A stretch of 64,000 bases of DNA from an uncultured bacterium (GCA_903870275.1 CAIQCK010000121.1:192461-256460); one strand, 5' to 3'. Shown: positions 14,022 through 54,499, counted from the stretch's first letter. Notes: generated from the letters alone by a model not told the origin. Made by a program: numbers and translations.

Positions 14022-17000
14022 ATGATGAAGAGCAGATTATTGCTGAAGCCTTGGAAACAAATGGCCGTGTTGGCTTTGGCGTTTTTCGCGAGTGCCGGAG
14101 TTTCAAATGCCGGCGAAACAGCCGTCAACCCGGCTGTGCTCGCCAACGCGCGCGAAATTCAGGATGCCACCGGTGTTAAAGGTGGCCTTATCGTCCATGT
14201 CGGCTGCGGCGACGGCACGCTGACGGCGGCGCTGCGAACGAGCGACAGTTTTATTGTTCACGGCCTCGACGCCGATGCGGCAAACATCGCGGCGGCGCGG
14301 CAGCACATCCAGTCGCTCGGTCTTTACGGGCCGGTGTCGGTCGAGACGTGGAGCGGCAAGCGGCTGCCTTACGCCGACAACCTCGTCAACCTCGTCGTGG
14401 TCAGCGACGAATCATCGGTTGGCCGTAACGAAATTCTGCGCGTGCTGGCTCCCGGCGGCGCGGCGCTTATTGTCAATTCCCGGTCACCGGGGCCCGATTC
14501 CCGATGGGTGAAACCGCTTCCGGGCGACACGGATGAGTGGACCCATTTTCTTCACGACGCCGGCAACAACGCCGTCGCGCACGACGCGCGCGTGGCCGCG
14601 CCGCGGTCGCTGCAATGGAGCGCGCCGCCGCTCTGGCTGCGCAGCCACGAAACGCCGTCGGGCGTTGAGGCGATGGTTTGCGGCGGCGGGCGGTTGTTTT
14701 ACATCTTCGACGAAGGACTGGTGGGCATCACCGACCAGCGGCTGCCGGAGCGATGGGCGTTGCTCTGCCGCGACGCGTTCAACGGCAAACTGCTCTGGCG
14801 GCGGCCGATTGAGAAATGGGGCTGGCCGGAATGGGCGCCGGAGAAATTTTCCACCGATTGGACCACCATCGTTGGCGGACGCACGATCGTGCCCGATGAA
14901 AACCAGCGCCGGCTCGTGGTGGACGGCGACCGGCTTTACGCGACGCTGAGTTACCGCGCGCCGCTTTCCATCCTCGACGCGGCTACCGGCAAAACGCTCG
15001 CGACGGTCGCCGACACCGCGCCCGTGCGGCAGATCGTCGCGGCCGATGGCGTGGCCTTGGTTTATTCGCACGACGCCAAGCCCGAGGTGGGGCCGTTGAG
15101 GCCGAAAGGCAAGGGGATGGTCAACGACGCTCCGCAAGGCGCGTTGATCGCTGTGCGCGGCGCGACCGGCCAGGTGCTCTGGCGCAAGAGCATCCCTGCG
15201 CTGCGCGGGTTGTCGCTGGCGATTGACGGCGGGCGCGTGGTGTTTCAGCACGGCAAGACGCTGAGCGCCCTCGACTTGAAGACGGGCGAACAACGCTGGC
15301 AGGCCGAAATCGACGAGGCAAACGTCCGCACGCTGGTGGCCTGCGCCGGCGCGGTGGTTTTGCTGGGTCAAAAGGGCCTGGAGACGCGCGACGCTGCGAC
15401 AGGCAGTCTGCTGTGGCAAAAAGAAGTGCCGCTGGCTCGCGGCCTAGGCAGCGAGGGACTTTACATCGTCAACGGCGTCGTCTGGCCGGACATGATTTCG
15501 GTGGATGACGGCCAGCAGCCGGACCTCAAGAGCAAAAGCCCGAACGTGCTGGCCGTCGGATACGATCTGCGCACTGGTGAGGAGCGTAAACGCATCTTCG
15601 TCCAGAACCTTCGCAGCCCGGAGCATCACCACCGGTGTTACCGGAACAAGGCGACGGACCGGTTCCTCATCAGTTCGCTGGAAGGCACCGAGTTCCTCGA
15701 CTTGCGCGGCAGCGAGCACACGCAGAATAATTTCGTCCGCGGCGCGTGCCGGCTCGGCATGATGCCGTGCAACGGGATGCTCTACGCGCCGCCCGACCAG
15801 TGCTTCTGCGAGCCGGGCTCGAAGCTTCTGGGCTTCAAAGCGCTCGCGCCGGAGCGGCCGTTGGGCGCGGAGAATGAAGTTTCGGACGCGGAACGGCTCG
15901 AACGCGGTCCCGCCTACGGCGCGACAATCCAAAATCCAAAATCCAAAATCCAAAATTCAGAGGATTGGCCGACCTACCGTCATGACGCGGCGCGACACGG
16001 CTCGACGCCGGCCGCGGTCGCGACGCCGCTGGGCGAGACCTGGTGCGTAAAGCTGGGCGGCGGTCTGACACAACCGGTCGCGGCAGAGGACCGCGTTTAC
16101 GTCGCGTCGAGGGACACGCACGCGCTCCACGCGCTGGAGTTGAAGACGGGCAAGCCGCTGTGGACGTTTGTCGCGGGCGGGAGGATTGACTCGCCGCCGA
16201 CGCTTGTGAGCGGTCTGGTGTTGTTTGGCAGCGCCGACGGCCATGTCTATTGCCTGCGCGCTGCCGACGGCGCGCTGGCGTGGCGGTTTCTGGCCGCGCC
16301 GGGCGAGCGGCGCATCGTCGTGGACGACCAGATCGAATCGGCCTGGCCGGTCCACGGCAGCGTGTTGGAGCGCGACGGCGTCGTGTATTTCACTGCCGGC
16401 CGTTCGAGCTACCTCGACGGTGGCATCCGGTTCTACGCGCTTGAGCCGGCCACCGGCAAAGTGCTCCGCCAGGCGACGCTGGCCGGACCGTTCCCCGACG
16501 GCAAAACCACGCGCGACGTTTCCTTCTACATCAACGGCGCCAACAACGACGTGCTGGTCAGCGAAGGCGGTTCAATCTACATGCGCCAGAAGCGGCTGAC
16601 ACCGGCGCTCGCGGAGCAGACCGCCGGGGAACTTTCCAAAATGGGCGAGAAGGATGTGGGTCTGCACCTGTTCTCCACGGCCGGGCTGCTCGATGCGTCG
16701 TGGTATAACCGGACGTTCTGGATGTATTCGAAGCGCTGGCCCGGTTTTCAGCTTGCCAACCAGGCGCCCAAAAGCGGCCAACTGCTCGTCGTGGACGGCG
16801 AGCGCACCTTCGGCGTGCAGCCGTTCTATCGGCGGAATGTCCACAGCCCCATGTTTTTTCCGGCCAAGGAAGGTTACCTGCTCTTTGCCGACAGGAACGC
16901 AACCGAGCCGCAGATCGTCGGCGAGGAGGGTGCGCGCAAACCCGTGGTGTGGCTCCCGCAGTCCGACTACGAACGCGGCGGCGGCCGGGCGGTCGAGAAG

Positions 17001-17349: not shown

Positions 17350-20300
17350 ATGAACCGATTTGCGACCTGCACCCTCATCGCCGCGCTGGCTTGGGTTTCC
17401 GCCAACGCGGATCAACCGTCGGCGTCACAGATTCTCAAAGAGACCGGCATCCAAGGCGGCCTCGTCGTTCACGTCGGTTGCGGCGATGGCTCGTTGACGG
17501 CGGCATTGCGCGCGAACGACAGTTTTATTGTCCAGGGTCTCGATACCGACGCGAAGCATGTCGAGGCAGCGCGCAAGCACATCGCGTCGCTCGGCCTTTA
17601 CGGCAAGGTGACGGCGGAGCCGTGGGACGGCGGGCGGCTGCCTTACATCGAGAACTTCGTCAACCTCGTCGTGGTGAGCGAGGGGTGCCGTGTGGCGGAG
17701 GAGGAGATCATGCGCGTGCTTGCGCCCAACGGCGTGGCCATCGTCGGAAGCCGAAAGATCGTGAAGCCGCGGCCGAAGGAAATGGACGAGTGGACGCATT
17801 ACCTGCACGACCCCGGCAACAACGCCGTCGCGCATGATTCGCTGGTCGGCCCGCCGCGACAGTACCAGTGGATTGGCGGGCCACGCTGGTCGCGGCATCA
17901 CGACCACATGAGCAGTATCAGCGCAGTGGTCTCGGCCAATGGCCGGCTGTTCTACATCGTGGACGAAGGTCCGCGCGCCTCCATCCTGTTGCCGCCCCAA
18001 TGGTCGCTCGTCGCCCGCGATGCGTTCAACGGGACCATCCTCTGGACGCGTCCCATCCCGGAATGGAACACACAACTCTGGCCGCTCAAGAGCGGTCCCA
18101 ACCAGCTTCCGCGCAGGCTGGTGGCCGCCGGCGACCGCGTGTATGTCACGCTCGGCATTGACGCGCCGGTGAGCGAACTCGATGCAGCCACGGGCCGAAC
18201 GTTGCGCGCGTTCGAGGGCACGCAGGAAACCGACGAAATCCTGTTTTCCGACGGCATGCTGTTTCTGCTGGTGGCCGAAGCGCCGAACCAATGGAAGGAT
18301 TACCGGCCGAAGCACACCTACGTTTGGGACAACACAAACCGCGCGAACAAGGAATGGGCGTGGGACCGGCAGAGGCGTCACGTCATGGCTGTGGACGCCG
18401 GCAGCGGCCGCAAGCTCTGGAAATCCGAGCAACGCGTCGCGCCGCTGACGCTGGCGTTGGACACACAGCACGTGTTCTTCTACGACGGCGAGAAAACCGT
18501 CGCCTTGGACCGCAAGAGCGGCCAGCCGTTGTGGTCATCGGAACCGGTTCCTCACAAACAGCCGTTCCCGACCGGCTATGGGCCAACGCTGGTGGCGCAG
18601 GACGACGTGGTGCTGCTCTCCGTCGAGCGCTTGACCATGACCGCTTTCGCCGCAGCCACCGGCAAGAAGTTGTGGTCGGCCGAGCATCATCGCGGCGGCC
18701 ACGCTTCACCCGACGATTTGTTGGTCATTGACGGCCTCGTGTGGTCGGGCCGGATTGCGGATGGCAAGGACGATGGCGTTTTCACCGGTCGCGACCTGCG
18801 CACGGGCGAGGTCAAAAGCGAGTTCGCCTGCGACAACGTCAACTACTGGTTTCATCACCGCTGCTATCGCGCGAAGGCGACCGACCGGTTTATTCTGACC
18901 TCGCGCACGGGCACGGAGTTTGTGGATATCGCAGCGAAGCACTGGGACCTCAACCACTGGGTTCGCGGCGCGTGCCTCTACGGGGTGATGCCCGCCAACG
19001 GTCTGCTCTATGCGCCGCCGCATCCGTGCGCCTGCTACCTCGAATCGAAGCTGTCCGGTTTCAACGCACTCGCGCCGGCGCGCCCAACCATGGAACGTGG
19101 AGCGTCGAGCGTGGAGCGTCTCGAACGCGGCCCGGCCTTTGCGGAAATCCAAAACTCAAAAACCAAAATCCAAAATGCGGAAGATTGGCCCACCTACCGC
19201 AGCGACGCCGCCCGCAGCGGCTTTGCGAAAACGGATGTGCCGTCCGACCTCAAGCTTGCCTGGCAAGCGGACATCGGCGGCAAACTCAGCAGCGTCACGG
19301 TCGCGGACGGCCGGGTGTTCGTCGCGTCGGTGGACACGCACACGGTGCATGCGCTCGACGCGGCCACGGGCAAACCGGCGTGGACATTCACTGCCGGCGC
19401 ACGCGTGGATTCGCCGCCGACGATTTGGACGGGGCGCGTGCTCTTTGGCTCGGCCGATGGTTGGGTCTATTGTCTGCGCGCGGAGGACGGCGCGTTGGTG
19501 TGGCGGTTTCGCGCCGCGCCGGAAGAGCGGCGGATGATGGCCATTGAGCAGTTGGAATCGGTCTGGCCGGTTTCCGGCGCCGTGCTGGTGCGCGACGGTG
19601 TGGTGTTTTGCGTGGCCGGCCGCTCGGCGTTTCTCGACGGCGGCATGCGGCTGTTGCGGTTGGACGCGGCGACAGGCCGCGAATTATCCGAGACGGTCCT
19701 CAACGACCGCGACTTGTCCACTGGCGAGCCGCTGCAAAAATTCGTGCAACAACTCGACATGCCCACCGCCCTGCCGGATGTGCTTTCCTGCGACGGCCGC
19801 TCGGTATACATGCGCGCCCAGCGGTTTGACCTCAACGGCGCGCGGCAGGAGTTCGCGCCGATGGACCCCAAGGAACAAACGGGCGAGGGAGTGCATTTAT
19901 TCTCGCGCAGCGGCTTCCTCGACGACACCTGGTGGCACCGGTCCTTCTGGATGTATGGGCGGGGAGTGAAGTCCGGATACGGCGATTGGTTCAAGCCGGG
20001 AAACTACGCGCCGTCGGGCCGTTTGATGGTGTTCGACGATTTCGCGCTCTACAGCTTCGACCGCAAGCCGATGTCCATGTGCAACGCCTCGGTCTATGAT
20101 TACTATCTCTATGCCGCCGACAAACAGACCAAGGAGGAGGCCATCCAGCGCGTGACCGCCGCCAACGGCCGGATGAACGCTGCTTCGATCAAGAAGGTCG
20201 CATCCACTTCCGACTGGGCGCTGCGGAAAAAGTTCTCGCTCAGCGAACTCTCCGCCGCCGGCTTCAAGTGGGCGGAGGGCGATCTGCCGCTGCTGGCTCG

Positions 20301-30700: not shown

Positions 30701-32574
30701 CCCGCGGCGTCGAGCGCCTTCCGCGCAGCGGCGACTTTTTGCGCGTCGGGCTCAATGCCGATGATCCTCAGCTCCGTGTGTTTGGCGAGTTCCAGCGCGA
30801 GCCGGCCGGTCTCGCAACCGAGCACGAGACAGAAACCGCGTTTGACGCCCGATTCGCGCGCGATGGTCCTCGCGCCGGCGGCGCAGACGGCGGTGATCCT
30901 GTCCTGCGGATAAGGCGACGTGTTCGTGGGCTCGGCGACGGCCACGGCGGGCTTGACCGCGCCCGGCGCGAAACAATAAATCGCCCCGGTGTCCGTGCTC
31001 ACGTAGAGCCGGCCGCCGGCGACGGTGAGACCCTTGGCTTTGCCGCTGACCTTCGCTTCCCAGAGTTTGATGCCGGTGTCCGCGTTGACGGCCATCACGT
31101 GGCTTGGGCCGCCGGCAAACAAAACCTCGCCCGCGAGAATCAGCGCGTCGGAGCAGTCGCACGGCAGGCGCCATTTCACGCACGACTTCATCTCCGCGTC
31201 GGCCTGCGCCAACTGTTTATCCATGCCTTGCAGCCGCTTCTCGACGCCGTCCAGTTTTTTGTTCACCTCGTTGAGCTTGGCTTCGTCCTCCTTCAGCATC
31301 TTCCCGGTTTCGTCCCGCGTGGCTTCGAGCGCGGCGCGCTGCGGATCGTCCGCCGGCAGCGAGGCGAGCTTGGCGTTGACGCTGGCCAGGGATGACTGCG
31401 CATGCGCGATCAGAATGGTCAGGCGCTTCTGGTCCTTGCGCGATGTGCCTGACTCGGCGTTGAGCGCGACGCGCTGGGTGTGGAGGTGGAACCGCAGGAC
31501 GCTGGCCTGCGGATAAATCTCCCGCTTCAACGCCATCACCGCGTTGCTGGTGCTCAGGTAGGCAAGGCCCTCGGTCATGATGACCTTGCGCGCGGCGAAC
31601 CACGCCGCCTCCACCCGGGTGGCGCTGTCGTAGCCGATGATCTCCTCGGTGCCGGTGTAGAGCTGGTTGTCGGCCAGCAACGCAAAGGTGCCGCCGATGG
31701 GCTTGTTGCCAAAAGTGGCCGCGAAGGTCGGACCTTTGATCTTGGGGTTGGCCGGGGCGGACAACGCGACCTCATACAGGCGGTGGCCGTCCTGCCGGTC
31801 GAACGCCGAGGGCGAAACGCGGCCTTGCGGGACGAACAGATTGGTGTTGCTGGCGAGCAGGTAGCCTTGCGGCGACATGCGGCCCTCGGTGGACTCGCCG
31901 CCCGTGTCGTTGCGCCAGAGCAACTGCCCGTCGCTGGCGCGCGCCGCCTCCACATACACGCCCTCCGCCGGAAAAATCCCCGCCCCGTAATACGCCACCC
32001 CGCCGTCCACCAGCACGCCCGTCCGCACCGGCCACATGGATATCATCCGGCCGTGGCCGAGCAACCGTTGATCGCCCGGACCGGGGCGGCGCTGCCAGAT
32101 CACCCTGCCGTCGCTGGCGGCGAGGCAATACACCTGGCCGTCGTCGGAGCCGACATACACGCGGTCGTCGCACACCGTCGGCGCGAGCCGCACCGGGCCG
32201 CCGGTGAAAAACGTCCACCGCACCCGCCCGCTCGCCGCGTCGAGGCAATACACCTTGTTGTCCGCCGACGAGCCGAAGTAGAGCGCGCCGCCCGCGACCA
32301 CCGTGTGGAAGGCGTCGTCGAACCGCACCCGCGGCAATTCCAGAAAACCCTCCACCGGCACGTCGCGCGGCGGTTCCCACGCCGGCGCGGGCGCCTGGCG
32401 TGAGCGGTAAACCCACGACTCCGCGAGCGGCGTGGCGAGCTTCTCCGGCGAGATGCCGCTGCGGGCCATGTCGTGCCGGTAGGTGGGCCAGTCATCGGCG
32501 CTAGCTGCGGCCAGGGCGGCGGCGGCAAGGACCAGGACAACCGGCGTTCGTAACCGCAAAGGCAACCGTTTCAT
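27730..32574 (-). CDS. Paralog P3 (1614 aa). Secreted protein with a permuted architecture: PQQ-like beta-propeller, coiled coil, degenerate MTase-fold domain, second beta-propeller region, and a C-terminal CBM96/DNRLRE-like beta-sandwich.
   Basis: The start MKRLPLRLRTPVVLVLAAAALAAASA precedes 'DDWPTYRHDMARSGIS', which is the same junction motif as in P1, P2 and P4. Blades read 'RVRWTFFTGGPVRLAPTVCDDRVYVGSDDGQVYCLAASDGRVIWQ'. The coiled coil is 'LEATRDETGKMLKEDEAKLNEVNKKLDGVEKRLQGMDKQLAQADAEMK'. The MTase-fold is 'FCLVLGCETGRLAL...LPYASYFANLIVSE'. The C-terminus is 'DAHVIRLAPTANYGKVPVLLVDGG...VAYLKFSL...AKLRLINAG...ICLVTEPWREDDITYANRP'. Confidence 0.8.
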   Translation of the reverse strand: MKRLPLRLRTPVVLVLAAAALAAASADDWPTYRHDMARSGISPEKLATPLAESWVYRSRQAPAPAWEPPRDVPVEGFLELPRVRFDDAFHTVVAGGALYFGSSADNKVYCLDAASGRVRWTFFTGGPVRLAPTVCDDRVYVGSDDGQVYCLAASDGRVIWQRRPGPGDQRLLGHGRMISMWPVRTGVLVDGGVAYYGAGIFPAEGVYVEAARASDGQLLWRNDTGGESTEGRMSPQGYLLASNTNLFVPQGRVSPSAFDRQDGHRLYEVALSAPANPKIKGPTFAATFGNKPIGGTFALLADNQLYTGTEEIIGYDSATRVEAAWFAARKVIMTEGLAYLSTSNAVMALKREIYPQASVLRFHLHTQRVALNAESGTSRKDQKRLTILIAHAQSSLASVNAKLASLPADDPQRAALEATRDETGKMLKEDEAKLNEVNKKLDGVEKRLQGMDKQLAQADAEMKSCVKWRLPCDCSDALILAGEVLFAGGPSHVMAVNADTGIKLWEAKVSGKAKGLTVAGGRLYVSTDTGAIYCFAPGAVKPAVAVAEPTNTSPYPQDRITAVCAAGARTIARESGVKRGFCLVLGCETGRLALELAKHTELRIIGIEPDAQKVAAARKALDAAGVYGTRVTVDQGALDHLPYASYFANLIVSETALLGRLNDCSAKEILRVLKPCGGVAMLGQPAEAKGDIPTLTPAGLRAWFASGGVPGVEVTETDGAWAMLKRGPLPGAGAWTHEYADAANTTCGDDKLVKCPLGLLWFGDPGPLQMISRHRRAAAPLSVNGVMLVEGENAVNAYDAYNGLKLWDRKIPNVIRAGTSDESSNLAADESSFYVATTNKCLRLDIATGAIKATYALPKVTDGKPRSWRYVAVADGLLVGSGSRTNNVSDILFAFDTATSRIRWTYGGGIQDATISIGGGRVFFADGGPKSAPGVIKPARPSPMRGVTALDLATGRTVWNKQMDLTGCVGGTHWGTLGSMVHDGVLVFFGVYTDGHFWKEFFANQFDKRRVIALAASDGSPLWSKNIAYRVRPLIIGDTFHAEPWAFDLKTGEQRTRVNPITGRTEPWQFARPGHHCGTPAACANVMLFRSYYLGYYDLIGDSGTTTFGGQRPGCWINFIAANGLVMMPEASSGCMCPFPIVCTTVLAPREENRAWGKYSLAGDTKPVKHLALNLGAPGDRRDDAGTLWLAYPRPAPATPSLVLQFKLGITLQPGIGKYLAQSADFVRIEGTRSPWLYTFGCRGIASCDIPLLNPGDGTGRYTVRLGFAEMDDAKPGQRVFDVKLQKKVALKDFDVVKEAGGLRKALVKEFSGVEVDDSLLIEFVPKTRQPAPEQAPILQTVEVLRERMLGVAVTVPPVLLNNAKPEQTATLQLSNQTDSDFAGTLRIAAPKGFTVTPAETPINLLVGQKAEVECKFAVAGKPQSSQYTARVQLLRRDGAVEVARDITVDYLGRGDRMVFKAIADAHVIRLAPTANYGKVPVLLVDGGDKKMGDDHHQVAYLKFSLAVPGKPVSAKLRLINAGNESVNGGNICLVTEPWREDDITYANRPAPGTVLANIGRVNSNQIVEVPLKHLSFDGMKTLSLAIDPVSTDGVNYFARESGKGPELIVEFEK

Positions 32575-32715
32575 ATTCACGACTCCAATACTCCGCCACT
32601 CCATCACTCCAATACTTCACCACTCCACATCGCAGCCCGGCCGGCGATGGCGCCCGCCATGGAGCGTCACATCCATCGTCCGGTATTGTCATCGAGCGTA
32701 GGCAACGCCCGGACC

Positions 32716-33920: not shown

Positions 33921-36900
33921 TTATTCTGACTTGCCGAAGCAGAGGGCCTTGCCGTTTTGCAGGGTGAGAAAGACGTGCTGGCCGGCGAGCGCGAGGCTGT
34001 CATAGACCGGTGGCATTTCCAGCGGATACTCCGCCACGATCCGGCCGTCTTTGGTCGAAAGCAGCGCGAGAAATCCGCTGACGGCGCCGGCGTCGCACAC
34101 GGTTCCCGCCACGACCACTGCGTTGTCGCACAACGACATCGCCTCGGCCTGGTGATTGGCCGGCATCGCCTGCCGCCACGCGTAATCTTCCCGCGCCAGC
34201 TTCCCGGCACCCGCGGTCTTCGCGCGCTCCATGGCGTAGCACGAGCGCGACTTGCTCTCATAGCCAAAGACGGTGTTCCCGTTCCAACAGAAGATTTCCG
34301 CGGTGGCGCGGCCGAACTTTTGCCCGCCGGATCGGCGTGTGCCCATGCGGGTCCACGAGCCGTCCATCAACGCTTCCAGCGGCGCGTCGCGCTCGCCCTT
34401 GGCCGCGACATCGCCCTCGCCGGTCTTGGGGTCGAATTGAAGATGATGGAGTTTGATGCTTCCGTCGCGCGCGACGAGCAGATCGTTTTCGCGGACGGGG
34501 CCGGGACCGACCTCCCTGGCCCAGAGCTGCCGGCCGCTGGCGGGATCGAGCGCGCAGACGGCCAGGCCGCCGTCGGTTTCCGACGAACGGCCGGCCGACG
34601 CGTAGAGCACGCCCTCGTGGACCAGCACCGATCCGGGCACCGGCCAGACGGACTCCATCGCGCCGAACGCCACCATGCGGCGCTCCCAAGGCGCGATGCG
34701 CGCGCGCCACGCCAGTTGGCCGTCGCGGGCGCGAAGCGCGTAAACCCATCCGTCGTGCGAGCCGATCAGGCAGAGGTCGCCGTGGATCGTGGGCGGCGAA
34801 TCGAGCCGCCCGCCCACCGTGGCGCGCCAGAGCGGCTTGCCGGTGGCGGCGTTGAGCGCGACGACTTGAGCGGTGTCCGTGGCGGCTGCGAAAACCATTC
34901 CGTTGGCGACGACGGGCGCGCTGAGGCAGGAGGTGAGCTGCGCCTGCCACGCCGCCGCGAGCGGACCGGTGGGAGGACGAGCGGCTTCGCGCTGCCAGAG
35001 GAGTTTGAGTTTTTCAGGGATCGCGCTCTGGGTGGCGCCGCTGCGTTCGCCGTCGTGGCGGTAGAGGGGCCAGTCTACTGAATTTTGGATTTTAGATTTT
35101 GGATTTTGGATTTCGGAATTAGAAGTTGGGAGTTGGGGGGTGGAATTTTGGATTTGCTTCGCAGGTCTCGCAGACTCGGCTTTGGATTTTAGATTTTGGA
35201 TTTCGGATGTTGGCGATTGGCGATTGGAGATTTGAGATTTGGAATCTGGAATTTGAAATTTCGCACCGAAGGCGGGGCCGGGCTCGATGGGACGCGGCTT
35301 TTCAAATTCGCCGGCCGCGGGCGGGTCGCCGCTGGGGCCGAACGCAACGAAGCCCGGCACCTGGCCCGGCGCGCACCGGCAGAAGTTCTGGCCGGTGAAA
35401 AACATGCCGAGCGCCGGGGTCGCGCCTTCGATGCAAGCGCCGCGGGCCGCGGCATAACTGATATGCGTGGCGCTGCCCTTGAACGTCGCGCCCTCCGGCG
35501 ATGGCGCCAGCTCCAGGTAGGAGCAGCCGCGGCTGGCGGTGACGTAGTTGCCGACGACGGCGGCCGGCGTGCACATCGGCGAGTCCATGGAGACCGGCAA
35601 CAGGCCTTTCACCTCGCCCGTCCTGGGATCGTATTTTTTGCTTTCGTGCCAGAGCAGGCCGTCCACCAGCGGCGTCCAGAATCGGCCGGCCGGTTTGATC
35701 TCCCACAACACCTTGCCGTCGGCGGCGGAGAGGATGGAGATCGTCTTCGCCTTGGGCCGGGCGACGGAGAGCATGCCGAGACCCGCGCAGTTGAGATTCA
35801 TCGGCGTCGCCGGCTCGAACTGCGTGTGCTCGACGCGCCATCGCTCGCGGCCGGTTTGCAAATCCACCGCGACGATCCGCTGGCCGGTCGGCGGGTTGCC
35901 CGATTGCAGCAGCAGATAAACGACGCCGTCGGCGGTGACCATCTCCTGCGCCGGCACCGGCAGGGACCATTTCGCCGCGCCGCTGGCCGCGTCGAAGGCT
36001 TCGATCGCGCCCGCCGCGCCGGTCTTGTTCACCCACGGCGCCCAGATGACGCCGCGCTCGAACTGCTTGAGTTCCTCCTTCGCTTCCCAGCCGGAAGAGA
36101 TCAGCACGTTCTGCGAGAGGAGCAGGCGGACGGTCTGGTATTTCACCGGGCAACTGACCGCGACCGCGCCGCTGGCGGCGTCGAGTCCGACGAGGCGGTC
36201 CTTTTTGTAAACATAAACGCGGCGGTCGTCGGCGACGATGGGGGCGAGGTTGAAGGCGTTGAGGGCCTGGCCGTTGTCGAGCGTCTCGCAGTTCAGTTTC
36301 CAGAGCGGCAGGCCGTTGAACGCGTCGCGCGCGGTGACGTATTGCTCCTGCTTGTGTTTGGCGAACGACGCCGGCGCGAGGTTTTCTAGCTCCGTGGTGC
36401 TGAGCGTGAAACAGCGGCCGTTGGCGATGACCCAGCCGCGGCAGGCGGCCCACATGTTGAAGTTCATCGGCAGCCCGTCCTGCCAGCGGAGGCCGGAGGG
36501 AAACTTCACGACGCGGTCGGCCGAGACGCGGTTGCCGTCGGCGCTGTGCGCCGGTTGCGGCCAGTCGTCCATTTCCGGCGGACGCGGCTTGACCGAGCGG
36601 GTCCATCGGCCGGCCTTGCGGACGCAGATCGCGCCGCCGGGCGCGACGATGCGCTCGACCTCCGCGGTCGTCAGGCCTTGCGCGCTCAGGGCGGGCCAGT
36701 CCTCGATCACCACGAGATTGGCGAGGTCGCGGAGGTAAGGAAGGTGAACTAAAGGCATCTTCTCTACCATCGCTTTTCCGGCGATCCCCCTCGTCTCGAT
36801 GGCTTTGCGCGCGCGATCGAGCGCGGCGTCGTCGAGCGCCAGCCCGTGCACGAGGAGGTTGCTGTCGGCGGCGAGGTCGGCGGTGAGGGCTGGGTTGTTC

Positions 36901-37067
36901 TTGGAGCCGCAGCCGAGATGAACACAGAGGCCGATCTTGACGCCCGCGACTTCGAGGATTTGGTCCGCTTGCGTTTTGGCGGGCGCAGCGTTGGCATTGA
37001 GAGTCCACGCGAGAATCAGTCCAATGACGGACAGCAGTGACAGGAATTTTTGAGTCATGCGCATCAT
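33921..37067 (-). CDS. Paralog P4 (1048 aa). Secreted MTase-fold (degenerate motif I) plus PQQ-like beta-propeller multidomain protein, with an expanded IQNxKSK linker.
   Basis: Signal MMRMTQKFLSLLSVIGLILAWTLNANA. MTase fold 'GLCVHLGCGSKNNPALTADLA...LVHGLALDD...LPYLRDLANLVVIED'. The linker 'IQNLKSK...IQNSTPQLPTSNSEIQNPKSKIQNSVDWPLYRHDGERSG' is followed by the C-terminal propeller 'GKPLWRATVGGRLDSPPTIHGDLCLIGSHDGWVYALRARDGQLAWR'. Confidence 0.8.
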   Translation of the reverse strand: MMRMTQKFLSLLSVIGLILAWTLNANAAPAKTQADQILEVAGVKIGLCVHLGCGSKNNPALTADLAADSNLLVHGLALDDAALDRARKAIETRGIAGKAMVEKMPLVHLPYLRDLANLVVIEDWPALSAQGLTTAEVERIVAPGGAICVRKAGRWTRSVKPRPPEMDDWPQPAHSADGNRVSADRVVKFPSGLRWQDGLPMNFNMWAACRGWVIANGRCFTLSTTELENLAPASFAKHKQEQYVTARDAFNGLPLWKLNCETLDNGQALNAFNLAPIVADDRRVYVYKKDRLVGLDAASGAVAVSCPVKYQTVRLLLSQNVLISSGWEAKEELKQFERGVIWAPWVNKTGAAGAIEAFDAASGAAKWSLPVPAQEMVTADGVVYLLLQSGNPPTGQRIVAVDLQTGRERWRVEHTQFEPATPMNLNCAGLGMLSVARPKAKTISILSAADGKVLWEIKPAGRFWTPLVDGLLWHESKKYDPRTGEVKGLLPVSMDSPMCTPAAVVGNYVTASRGCSYLELAPSPEGATFKGSATHISYAAARGACIEGATPALGMFFTGQNFCRCAPGQVPGFVAFGPSGDPPAAGEFEKPRPIEPGPAFGAKFQIPDSKSQISNRQSPTSEIQNLKSKAESARPAKQIQNSTPQLPTSNSEIQNPKSKIQNSVDWPLYRHDGERSGATQSAIPEKLKLLWQREAARPPTGPLAAAWQAQLTSCLSAPVVANGMVFAAATDTAQVVALNAATGKPLWRATVGGRLDSPPTIHGDLCLIGSHDGWVYALRARDGQLAWRARIAPWERRMVAFGAMESVWPVPGSVLVHEGVLYASAGRSSETDGGLAVCALDPASGRQLWAREVGPGPVRENDLLVARDGSIKLHHLQFDPKTGEGDVAAKGERDAPLEALMDGSWTRMGTRRSGGQKFGRATAEIFCWNGNTVFGYESKSRSCYAMERAKTAGAGKLAREDYAWRQAMPANHQAEAMSLCDNAVVVAGTVCDAGAVSGFLALLSTKDGRIVAEYPLEMPPVYDSLALAGQHVFLTLQNGKALCFGKSE
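35080..35270 (-). repeat. Expanded, interrupted array of the heptanucleotide repeat (ttggatt on +, aatccaa on -) inside P4.
   Basis: On the + strand: gaattttggattttagattttggattttggatttcgg ... ggaattttggatttgc ... ctttggattttagattttggatttcggatgttgg ... gagatttgagatttggaatctggaatttgaaattt. Confidence 0.8.
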
Positions 37068-37129
37068 GTTCTCCGCTGAAGTTGTTTCCAAGATCCAGTT
37101 TCGGCGGCGAGCGTAGCAGCGCGCGGATG

Positions 37130-37324
37130 GAAGGCGAGGTTGAAATGGCCGACAGTGCACCCGTTTACGACCGCACCGAACTTCGCGTCTTCGCGCCTTC
37201 CCTGTTGAATTTTTCCGTCATGGGATTTTGAACAGGGAAGGCGCGAGGACGCGAAGACAGTCGGGGCGCTGAGGCCCCTTCCACATTCAAAACGAGCCTT
37301 TACGTTTCTCCGCGTTCTCTGCGG
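37130..37324. promoter_or_regulatory. Conserved non-coding element, copy B, in the divergent region between P4 (-) and the ROK kinase operon (+). It contains a perfect 17-bp inverted repeat.
   Basis: It has the same termini as copy A. Internally, 'gcgccttccctgttgaa' (37193-37209) pairs with 'ttgaacagggaaggcgc' (37228-37244), separated by an 18-nt loop. Confidence 0.5.
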
Positions 37325-52415: not shown

Positions 52416-52675
52416 CCCACGGCGCGAGCCGTGGGTTTCGTGACGCAGAACGAAAGCCCCGGCAGGGGCGAAAGAAATCATACATCGGTGAGGTTTTCTG
52501 CCGCCCCGACGGGGCTTATGTTTTTCGGGCCACTATTCCCACGGCTTGCGCCGTGGGCTATTTTCTGGCGCGCCTCCGGCGCTCTCCTCCAGAACTGGCT
52601 TGTTCTTGAGCAAACAGAACATTTGGGCAACACGCCCTAAAACGCCGGGCTAATGTCAGCCGCTCCTATGGAGCG
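52416..52675. repeat. Symmetric set of paired hairpins in the 455-bp spacer, including a Rho-independent-terminator-like hairpin followed by a T-run.
   Basis: X1 52416-52435 cccacggc-gcga-gccgtggg. Y1 52457-52468 cccc-ggca-gggg. Y2 52503-52515 gcccc-gac-ggggc, followed by ttatgttttt. X2 52538-52557 cccacggc-ttgc-gccgtggg. 52659-52675 ccgctcc-tatg-gagcgg. Confidence 0.6.
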
Positions 52676-52700
52676 GAGTTCTCCAAGCAGTTCGCCGTGC

Positions 52701-54335
52701 TTAAGGCTTCGGACTCGCGCCCTTGTATCGCACCGTCAGATGCAGGTCGGTGAGAAAGCCTTTGTCTTGTGGGGCGGGCGTGACGGTGACGACATTGGCG
52801 CCTTGCTTCACCAGTTTGGCGTCGAGTTTGAACTCCAGCCAGTCTTTGGCGATTGCGCCGCCAGCGAGCGAAACGTCGTTGAGCGCGACCACGGCGTTGG
52901 CGGGTTGTTTCAACACTTTGAATTGCAGCCGCAGAGTCAAATCCGCGCCCACGCCTTTGGACTCGCCCCAACGCACGTCATCGCCGACCGAAAACTTCAC
53001 CGTCGCCGGCTTGTCGGGTGCGAGCGGCAACGACGCACCGGGATTGAGCGTCGCGAGGTGGATGAAGCTCTGATGCGGCAGCGAGTTGCCGGCGGCAACG
53101 CCGACGCCGCGCACGCTGGCGAAATAATCCTTGTTCATCCGTTGCAACGCCGCCGGATCGCCCAACTCGCGCCAGAGCGGACTGCGCGGGTTGAAGAAGT
53201 TGAACATGTAAACGCCGTCCGCGCCGGCGGCCCAGACATTCATGGCGCGCGCCCGGTAAGCCTCGACCGACGAGCGAAGACCGCGGGCCGCCTCGTCCCG
53301 CACGCGCGATTCGTCCAGCGACGGATAGACCGGCACGCCGTATTTGTGGCCGAGCGCGACGCTGTATTCCCACGGATTGAGCTGGATGTAGCTCGTGACC
53401 ACCAGCAGGTCCGCCAGATCGTCGGCAAGCCAGCGCTCCAGATCAATGCCGATGGCCCGGCTGTATTCGACCGAGTCCGGCACGCGCACGGCCATGAGCA
53501 GCGGCCGTCCGCGCCGCCGGCCCACGTCGTCGCACATCGCGCGGATGCGCTGGAGCAAGCCGGTCATCTGCGCGCGGTCCTCGTCGTCGCACGGCAGGCC
53601 TTGAGCGTTGTGCTTGAAGAAAATCGGGTGGCGGAAGAAATCCAGTTCGACGCCATCCACGTCGTAATTCCGGCAAACCTCCTCGACGTAACGAAACGCC
53701 AGGTCGCGAACCTCCGCGCGCCCGAAATCCACGGCGGACCACGCGCCGTATTTGGGTTTTTGCTGCGGCGTGCCGAACAGATATTCGGGGTGCGCCACCT
53801 TCAGTTTGTTCATGTTGAACATGACCGGCCCATACTCCGTGAGCGAGCCATCGTGCGTGTCGTTCATCCGCAGCGACCAGAAGACTTCGATGCCATGCTT
53901 CCGCCCGAACTCTGTCATCACCCGCAGCGGATCAATGCCCGCGTCGAGGAAAGCGCGCGTGGGATTGTTCGTGAACGGTGCCTCGCGCGTTTCGAAGACC
54001 TGGCCAACCTTCGTGTTGTGCGTGAACACGCCGAAACCGGAACTCCATGTGCAGTAGAAAATGCTGTCCACCTGCGAGCCGGCGAGCGCGGTGGTCCGGG
54101 CCTTCAGCAATTCCTCCGCGGTCACAGCCTTGCACTGATACACGATATCGTCGCCGTCGTTGTTGAAGATGATCCGCCGTTTGCGATGCGCCGCTTCCTT
54201 GCGGCGTTGCTTGAAGGAGTCGGCGGAAGGATTGCCGGAGGCACCGCCATTTTCCGCTGCGATACAAGAATCAGCGTCGCCAACGAGCAGCAACGCTGCG
54301 CCGACGGTAATCAACCAGAACGTTGTTCTTTTCAT
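52701..54335 (-). CDS. Secreted glycoside-hydrolase-like (beta/alpha)8-barrel protein, possibly the GHL10/DUF187-like family.
   Basis: Signal MKRTTFWLITVGAALLLVG. 'RIIFNNDGDD', 'GIEVFWSLRMNDTHD' and 'VDGVELDFFRHP' resemble TIM-barrel GH-like families. The family assignment is tentative. Confidence 0.6.
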   Translation of the reverse strand: MKRTTFWLITVGAALLLVGDADSCIAAENGGASGNPSADSFKQRRKEAAHRKRRIIFNNDGDDIVYQCKAVTAEELLKARTTALAGSQVDSIFYCTWSSGFGVFTHNTKVGQVFETREAPFTNNPTRAFLDAGIDPLRVMTEFGRKHGIEVFWSLRMNDTHDGSLTEYGPVMFNMNKLKVAHPEYLFGTPQQKPKYGAWSAVDFGRAEVRDLAFRYVEEVCRNYDVDGVELDFFRHPIFFKHNAQGLPCDDEDRAQMTGLLQRIRAMCDDVGRRRGRPLLMAVRVPDSVEYSRAIGIDLERWLADDLADLLVVTSYIQLNPWEYSVALGHKYGVPVYPSLDESRVRDEAARGLRSSVEAYRARAMNVWAAGADGVYMFNFFNPRSPLWRELGDPAALQRMNKDYFASVRGVGVAAGNSLPHQSFIHLATLNPGASLPLAPDKPATVKFSVGDDVRWGESKGVGADLTLRLQFKVLKQPANAVVALNDVSLAGGAIAKDWLEFKLDAKLVKQGANVVTVTPAPQDKGFLTDLHLTVRYKGASPKP

Positions 54336-54499
54336 AAGACTGTCCCGTGACATTCGCGCGGCCAACGCAGATTCATGAAGGGCAGGGCGGGACTCCGTCG
54401 AGCCTCCTTCAATCCGCATTCCGCATTCCAAAATCCGAAATCGAGAGCCGGCTAAACAGAGTCCGGCCCTGCCTCATTGGGTTTTGCGGCTGTGCTTCG

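Follow-up and report, generated by a model that had tools for sequence, protein, structure and literature searches.

The DNA considered here is a stretch of 64,000 nucleotides from the assembly of an uncultured bacterium (GCA_903870275.1, CAIQCK010000121.1:192461-256460), below called the window, and the feature in question is a tract of heptanucleotide repeats within P4, a gene on its minus strand. The open reading frame (ORF) of P4 is continuous from 33921 to 37160, and the start is placed at 37067, where the N-terminus MMRMTQKF/MRMTQKF matches the starts of proteins P0044 and P0038. The protein begins with a signal peptide, which is followed by a SAM-methyltransferase-like domain, a β-propeller, a Cys-rich piece (CRCAPGQ), a linker, and a C-terminal PQQ-like β-propeller that opens with DWPLYRHD and matches Pfam PQQ_2 (E=7.8e-35, ORF residues 736-895). 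The linker is where the repeats are found. The gene, the parts of the tract and the corresponding modules of two paralogues, P1 and P2, are as follows.

33921-37067, minus strand: gene P4, starting with MMRMTQKF at 37067.
35080-35261, minus strand: the whole heptamer tract, 182 nt, encoding residues 601-663 of the 1047-residue protein (AKFQIPDSK...KIQNSV), a predicted disordered interdomain linker.
35181-35261, minus strand: the 5' cluster, a mosaic of AAATTTC, AAATTCC, AGATTCC, AAATCTC (twice), CAATCGC (twice), and CAACATC, then CGAAATC/CAAAATC/TAAAATC.
35154-35180, minus strand: a 27-nt dispersed mini-element, variant A (GCCGAGTCTGCGAGACCTGCGAAGCAA), translated in P4 as AESARPAKQ.
35115-35153, minus strand: degenerate in-phase units (ATCC AAAATTC CACCCCC CAACTCC CAACTTC TAATTCC), encoding IQNSTPQLPTSNS.
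35080-35114, minus strand: the 3' near-perfect array (GAAATCC AAAATCC AAAATCT AAAATCC AAAATTC), 5.1 copies at 89% according to Tandem Repeats Finder (TRF).
15926-15960, plus strand: the single AAATCCA module of P1, TIQNPKSKIQNS, followed by EDWPTYRHD.
19145-19178, plus strand: the single, more degenerate module of P2, EIQNSKTKIQNA, followed by EDWPTYRSD.

The tract consists of about 23 AAATCCA-type heptamers and one 27-nt piece that is not a repeat, all of them in frame within P4. TRF recognizes four period-7 arrays (35082-35117, 35181-35213, 35210-35232, and 35230-35261), and the longest perfect period-7 run is 19 nt. When AAATCCAAAATCC is searched for with up to two mismatches the window contains 19 matches, against 0.87 expected from shuffled sequence; nine of these are on the minus strand at 35080-35210, and the remainder belong mainly to the single modules of P1 and P2. 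Followed along the minus strand, the heptamer phase comprises 12 units from 35261 to 35178, the twelfth overlapping the 27-nt core, whose non-repeat part occupies the next three 7-base slots. Another 11 units, five of which are near-perfect, extend from 35156 to 35080. The G+C content is 45% at the tract and about 70% in the flanks, making it an AT-rich island. An earlier note on this DNA described several repeat modules in P4 and one each in P1 and P2. This was borne out; the clusters are real, and the peptides that were listed, KFQIPDSKSQISNRQ, EIQNLKSK, IQNSTPQ, and EIQNPKSKIQNS, are all found in the translated ORF.

The 5' cluster is common to the 1017-residue relatives of P4 (the homologous peptide in P0005 is AKFQIPNSKSQIANRQSPISEIRNQKS), and its units AATCTCC and AATCGCC make up arrays at other sites in the genome too. 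AACTCCC, a unit of the degenerate stretch, forms an array of its own at C26:56680. The 3' array adjoins the DWPLYRHD start of the C-terminal propeller and is the frameshift site of one close relative. An AlphaFold2 model of P4 made from a 34-sequence alignment (predicted local distance difference test, pLDDT, 83; predicted template modeling score, pTM, 0.84) has well-folded domains flanking the tract, while residues 601-657 have a pLDDT of about 28 and are without secondary structure. From these properties the tract is predicted to be a disordered interdomain linker in a secreted Verrucomicrobia protein. Expression of the gene does not call for programmed frameshifting or for slippage during transcription, since the ORF is continuous, and the units are not slippery sites of the X XXY YYZ type.

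The linker differs in length among the homologues of P4, counted here as the number of residues between the Cys motif and WPxYR.

Distant Verrucomicrobia and Planctomycetes homologues, 31-60% identity over the linker region: 54-57 residues, an ordinary Ala/Pro/Ser linker in which heptamers and IQNPKSK are absent.
Orthologues in G001, G005, G006, G007, and G010 (another genus), 71-87% identity: 58 residues, with one 4.6-unit module, K-I/L-QNPKSKIQNP.
P0005, P0041, and P0043 (1017 residues, same 90% cluster), 96.6% identity: 78 residues, with the 5' cluster only.
P0038 of the source genome (P0044 differs solely by an extra start Met): 108 residues, with the full tract.

The single-module orthologues have drifted by point substitution while the length of the linker has stayed constant. 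Relative to these, the linker of the 96.6%-identical relative is 60 nt longer and that of the source genome a further 90 nt longer, and these 90 nt are the only indel between the two across 1047 residues; P0038 and P0005 agree at 982 of 1017 aligned positions, and the sole gaps are 30 residues inside the tract. The 1047-residue protein is identical on 14 contigs (NCBI, JGI, ENA), which rules out an assembly artefact, and the 1017-residue allele is found on five. Another relative from the same 90% cluster is frameshifted, and the gene is split into P0040 (733 residues) and P0042 (298 residues) on one contig. P0040 is 98% identical to P0005 as far as residue 629. Downstream of 35083, the +1 frame of the window DNA accounts for its 104-residue tail, with 91 of 102 residues identical and the stop in common. 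The difference is two residues and one base, and therefore one 7-nt unit has been lost at the 3' end of the tract, leaving a truncated protein without the C-terminal propeller. Counted by contigs, out-of-frame alleles are represented by one contig in the 90% cluster and in-frame alleles by 20.

Since linkers of 78 and 108 residues and a frameshifted state are all found within one 90% cluster, the linker is length-variable in the sublineage of the source genome, the congeners having 58 residues. The earlier note had called it hypervariable, and judged from these sequences that is too strong, as five orthologues do not differ in length, 14 contigs have one and the same allele, and even the longest perfect run is short.

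The interruption at 35154-35180 is GC-rich and has no heptamer periodicity. By BLAST and pattern searches 12 copies of this 27-nt core were found in seven genomes of the family, at non-homologous sites with different flanks. Three are in the source genome assembly, hereafter G000 (P4, C73:109321, and C124:6971), and the other nine are in G001, G002 (three), G004 (two), G005, G006, and G010. AAATCCA-type units adjoin each of the 12 copies at both ends, the orientation is always the same, and in G000 no copy was found outside such arrays. The copies fall into two sequence variants, ...GAGACCTGCGAAGC... and ...GAGACGAACGAAGTT..., with about 90% identity or more within a variant. Filled and empty sites exist side by side: at the site equivalent to G000 C90:99017 the 27 extra bases are present in G004 only, while six genomes from two genera have an uninterrupted array of constant length; at C73:109321 they are present in G000 only, and seven congeners have an uninterrupted array; and the core of P4 is absent from the 96.6%-identical P0005. 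Depending on the locus, the core is translated in one of two frames, as KSK-AESARPAKQ-IQN or as KIQ-SRVRETxEA-NPKSK, and it is therefore an element at the DNA level. The interruption is a dispersed mini-element that is found only within AAATCCA arrays, and not a decayed repeat.

No hairpin was found in the core, as neither strand of either variant folds better than shuffled sequences (z -0.39 to +1.19). An origin from a wider family was also considered and rejected, as 200 other genomes of the phylum yielded no match to a 16-nt stretch of the core. At two loci in other genomes, L028 in G002 and L029 in G005, the core is part of an array-core-array composite of 54-66 nt, while the corresponding sites in G000 (C88:3440-3505 and C46:905-973) have unrelated GC-rich loops of 21-30 nt. 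Because the G000 loops are unrelated at both orthologous sites, the composite appears to replace the native loop rather than being added to it. Another AAATCCA array in G000 (C96:8054-8108) is broken by a 16-nt perfect hairpin, CCCGAAAGCGTTCGGG, which is distinct from the 27-nt core and single-copy in the genome.

The G000 assembly is 7.13 Mb with 62% G+C. At a TRF score of at least 50 it contains 147 arrays of period 7, against none of period 6, 15 of period 8, and 19 of period 9. The period-7 arrays belong to many unit families and have a median length of 33 nt. Genes were called with a home-made program based on codon log-odds, which gave 4920 genes at 88% coverage; its starts and some strands are uncertain, and counts that depend on them are approximate. 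By these calls, 64% of 258 clusters fall between genes or at their edges, compared to about 25% of random sites. AAAATCC, the commonest unit, is exceptional in that 27 of its 37 arrays are inside called genes, 26 of them in the sense reading (KSKIQNP) and one in the hydrophobic antisense (ILDFGFW). Other long period-7/14/21 clusters are found in called genes of G000, and the P4 tract is not claimed to be the longest. An exact 20-mer of the repeat (AAATCCAx3) is found in all 11 genomes of the family, with 2-22 matches, and in four of 200 others in the phylum. Both the head-to-tail excess and the genome-wide excess of period 7 that characterize a heptanucleotide simple sequence repeat (SSR) are thus seen for the tract and the genome. 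Length differences among relatives in steps of the unit are seen in P0040 (-7 nt) and in an inositol-monophosphatase-family gene (21 nt), while the +60 and +90 nt of P4 are not simple unit multiples.

The genes that host AAATCCA arrays are bona fide according to Pfam and include inositol monophosphatase (with two arrays), TilS, a GH106 rhamnosidase, two proteins with FGE-sulfatase domains, GH141-type β-helix proteins, GT28, and HEAT proteins. In these genes the arrays occupy loops or interdomain positions. The inositol-monophosphatase-family gene (G000 C12:10366-11205, locus L054/L017, relatives L018-L026) has two in-frame arrays in loops, and the second site can be compared in nine genomes: in G005, G006, G007, G003, and G009 the array is lacking, in G001 and G004 it comprises 1.6 units, and in G000 and G002 it comprises 4.6 units, a difference of exactly 21 nt. 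Four paralogous GH141/β-helix-type proteins in G000 (C101:52380, C101:55103, C90:16729, and C95:8938) have a heptamer-encoded insert of 11-12 residues in the same loop, in the context FATLE[HR]ARD[AG][VA]R - QSKIQNPKSKIE - V..RGG.Y; one of the four uses the variant unit AATCTCA (ESQISNRKSQI). Perfect heptamer arrays from several families, at least 12 in all, are concentrated in a hot spot at about 50-75 kb of C26 in G000. An open frame of 1092 codons within it (about 71.0-74.3 kb) contains nine arrays and is doubtful as a gene.

Some sequences are shared between arrays at different loci. Two copies of the variant unit AAATCTA are present in P4, and the unit recurs in three further arrays, while no other single-substitution variant is seen more than once. 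Furthermore, 28 nt of the 3' array recur with 100% identity in the intergenic array at C90:136594-136621 and with 96% in the array of P1. The shared variant and the 28-nt identity with the C90 array suggest that arrays have been copied between loci. At the loci equivalent to G000 C90:99017-99044 (L041-L047) the array of G001 has been homogenized to four AATCAGA units with its length unchanged, and G003 has other units; this is a concerted change of the unit within an array, with the protein length kept.

The P4 tract is best understood as a lineage-specific in-frame expansion of a heptanucleotide SSR, AAATCCA, that pervades the genomes of a Verrucomicrobia family. The ancestral linker, shared by two genera, had a single module of about 4.6 units (K-I/L-Q-N-P-K-S-K-I-Q-N-P) between GPAFG and DWP. 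It then grew in at least two steps, of which the first, +60 nt, is common to the 96.6%-identical relative, while the second, +90 nt, is private to the source genome and would consist of the 27-nt mini-element and 63 nt (nine units) of repeat, each in frame. Growth may have taken place through slipped-strand mispairing combined with copying between arrays. As three 7-nt units make seven codons, the protein remains intact only when the net change is divisible by three, and a single-unit slip leads to truncation before the C-terminal propeller, as is seen in one natural relative, P0040. AAATCCA is stop-free in all six frames, no sense frame of the 27-nt core contains a stop, and in the sense direction the reading is hydrophilic; repeat DNA that is free of stops and hydrophilic in this way can therefore be translated as a disordered linker. 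The 26 sense arrays among the 27 AAAATCC arrays in bona fide host genes would then reflect a filter imposed by selection. Given that 14 contigs carry the same allele and that no perfect run exceeds 19 nt, the tract is probably tolerated repeat DNA in a linker and not a switch. The extra 50 residues most likely represent passenger DNA, in a linker into which any hydrophilic sequence would fit, rather than a regulated device.

Several points weigh against this interpretation. We infer the mutational mechanism, and the neutrality of the tract is an assumption. The division of the private 90 nt into 27 and 63 nt, as well as the breakpoints, is deduced from proteins and arithmetic. The 60 nt of the first step are not a multiple of 21, and simple triple-unit slippage therefore does not explain this step. 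A variant-A copy of the core was not found elsewhere in the source assembly, which is 93% complete, and intragenomic copying of the core into P4 is accordingly no more than a possibility. Finally, the frameshift allele is known from just one metagenome contig, where either an error of assembly or a minor variant could be responsible.

The tract might instead be a contingency locus of the neuO type, in which gain or loss of a single heptamer toggles the full-length protein, so that a population would contain both cells that have the C-terminal propeller and cells that lack it. Any 7-nt unit is inherently out of frame, a close relative that lost exactly 7 nt has a truncated protein, the protein is secreted and could face variable selection, and the heptanucleotide repeat of neuO does work in this way (PMC3046976). 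Such phase variation nevertheless seems unlikely for P4, because the tract is a heavily interrupted mosaic with a 27-nt insert and lacks a long perfect run. Interruptions stabilize microsatellites. Moreover, apart from the two in-frame alleles on 14 and five contigs only one contig is out of frame, the tract has the same length in five orthologous species, and the AAATCCA repeat is also found in housekeeping genes (TilS, inositol monophosphatase), where switching would be harmful. Alternatively the repeat-encoded peptide, or its length, might itself be functional, either by setting the reach between the propellers or as a charged Lys-rich tether like the heptads of NeuO, the activity of which increases with the number of heptads (PMC3046976). 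It would fit with such a function that the module is found at the same junction, just before DWP, in P1, P2, P4, and 41%-identical homologues, and that it is nearly always in the hydrophilic sense frame. However, the distant homologues have an unrelated 10-residue Ala/Pro/Ser linker, the residues of the module drift freely among orthologues (e.g., KIQNPRSTTQTPG in G001), and the two frames of the 27-nt core mean that DNA and not peptide is conserved. The sense bias is equally well explained by purifying selection against the hydrophobic reading, and an adaptive linker would be quite improbable.

The earlier note ascribed the tract to repeated local duplication, and in its strict form this would derive the entire tract from the ancestral module through duplication and slippage, the interruptions being decayed units. 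The tract is indeed an expansion, given the one module in G001, G005, G006, G007, and G010. The spacing of two TCCGAAATCCAAAATC stretches within it, exactly 90 nt, equals the private insertion in size, and one heptamer phase is kept over most of its length. The proposal is nevertheless incomplete, as the GC-rich interruption is the dispersed 27-nt element that inserts into AAATCCA arrays elsewhere. This interruption is aperiodic and recurs within arrays at 11 other non-homologous sites with clean insertion polymorphisms, and the distribution of AAATCTA, compared with that of the other single-substitution variants, also speaks against a history confined to P4. For the 27-nt core a purely local origin is contradicted by the sequences, and as an explanation for the entire tract it is very improbable.

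Heptanucleotide long simple sequence repeats (LSSRs) are, as summarized in PMC4679880, the most abundant class of longer repeat in some bacteria, and units not divisible by three are rare in coding regions in the same survey (Mrazek, Guo and Shah 2007, via PMC4679880). The repeats described here resemble the prokaryotic heptanucleotide LSSRs, in the summary given there, in that 7-nt units are the dominant longer SSR, with a phylogenetically scattered and lineage-specific occurrence that is ascribed to polymerase slippage (PMC4679880). Unlike in that survey, the commonest unit here is mostly intragenic, in frame and in one orientation. In the marine Beggiatoaceae, most TAACTGA direct repeats lie between genes and upstream of starts, and the smaller number inside ORFs are found at the edges of domains (PMC4679880). 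AAATCCA is similar in being a lineage-restricted heptamer with 2-6 tandem copies at many loci. However, each forward frame of TAACTGA contains a stop, and this repeat is barred from coding sequence (PMC4679880), while AAATCCA, being stop-free, is found mainly in genes. A closer parallel for P4 is the poly-psi motif of neuO, the O-acetyltransferase gene of the E. coli K1 prophage CUS-3, where an AAGACTC heptanucleotide variable number tandem repeat encodes a disordered heptad domain and causes phase switching (PMC3046976). Also there three units of a coding 7-nt repeat make up one heptad, the peptide is disordered, and the full-length protein is made only when the repeat is in frame (PMC3046976), a change of one unit truncating the protein. 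The neuO tract is long and perfect (2-93 copies), is found at the 5' end, and switches at high frequency (PMC3046976). The P4 tract, on the other hand, is internal, mosaic, and interrupted, contains a foreign 27-nt insert, and has three alleles among about 20 contigs.

For the 27-nt core itself, the closest analogue is in cyanobacteria. Nostoc and its relatives contain both heptamer repeats, named STRR, and small dispersed repeats (SDR) of 21-27 nt. Like these SDR, the core is a tiny dispersed element embedded in tandem heptamers at non-homologous sites, and it is present or absent between close relatives, so that filled and empty orthologous sites are found. Unlike them it belongs to the Verrucomicrobiota, has no predicted hairpin, and has copies in coding sequence that are read in two frames. 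It is possible, although we lean somewhat against it, that the core is a genuine ultra-small mobile element targeting AAATCCA arrays, a verrucomicrobial counterpart of the cyanobacterial SDR-in-heptamer system, and that together with the arrays it forms an active lineage-wide process that writes in-frame disordered loops and linkers into bona fide genes, including housekeeping genes, with P4 as a recent multi-step example.

Other repeats are also found in the window. An 8-nt tandem array with a 24-nt super-period, GGAGTGGT/GAAGTATT..., is found at 32578-32628 on the minus strand, directly upstream of the P3 start at 32574. It reaches the ATG of P3 and is thus a leader-region repeat with a period other than 7. 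P2 contains a second heptamer family (CGTGGAG/CGTCGAG, canonical ACGCTCC) at 19096-19120 on the plus strand, just upstream of its AAATCCA module and translated as ERGASSVERLERG; this type of unit has 11 arrays elsewhere in the genome. Finally, a heptamer array related to the AAATCCA family, CATTCCG CATTCCA AAATCCG AAATCGA, is found at 54413-54443 on the plus strand, about 60 nt beyond the stop (54350) of the plus-strand ORF 52653-54350. It is uncertain whether this array is intergenic, as the gene caller instead placed a minus-strand gene (52701-54431) there.

New here are the step-by-step history of the P4 tract and the 27-nt element that targets arrays, together with the filled and empty sites of this element. 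As regards P4, the practical conclusion is a modest one, namely that the protein has a floppy linker of unusual length that is probably not a switch. In annotation of this lineage, AT-rich repeat islands in GC-rich genes should be taken as translated linkers and not as gene boundaries. Heptanucleotide repeats in bacteria are a known yet unexplained class, usually thought to be excluded from coding sequence. One Verrucomicrobia family displays their whole life cycle in coding DNA, from the birth of an array in a loop and in-frame growth by three units to concerted change of the unit, a frameshift casualty, and invasion of arrays by a 27-nt mini-element with clean insertion polymorphisms. With comparative and population data, two questions thereby become testable, namely how repeats and the smallest dispersed elements spread, and how much they contribute to the evolution of linkers and loops in proteins.

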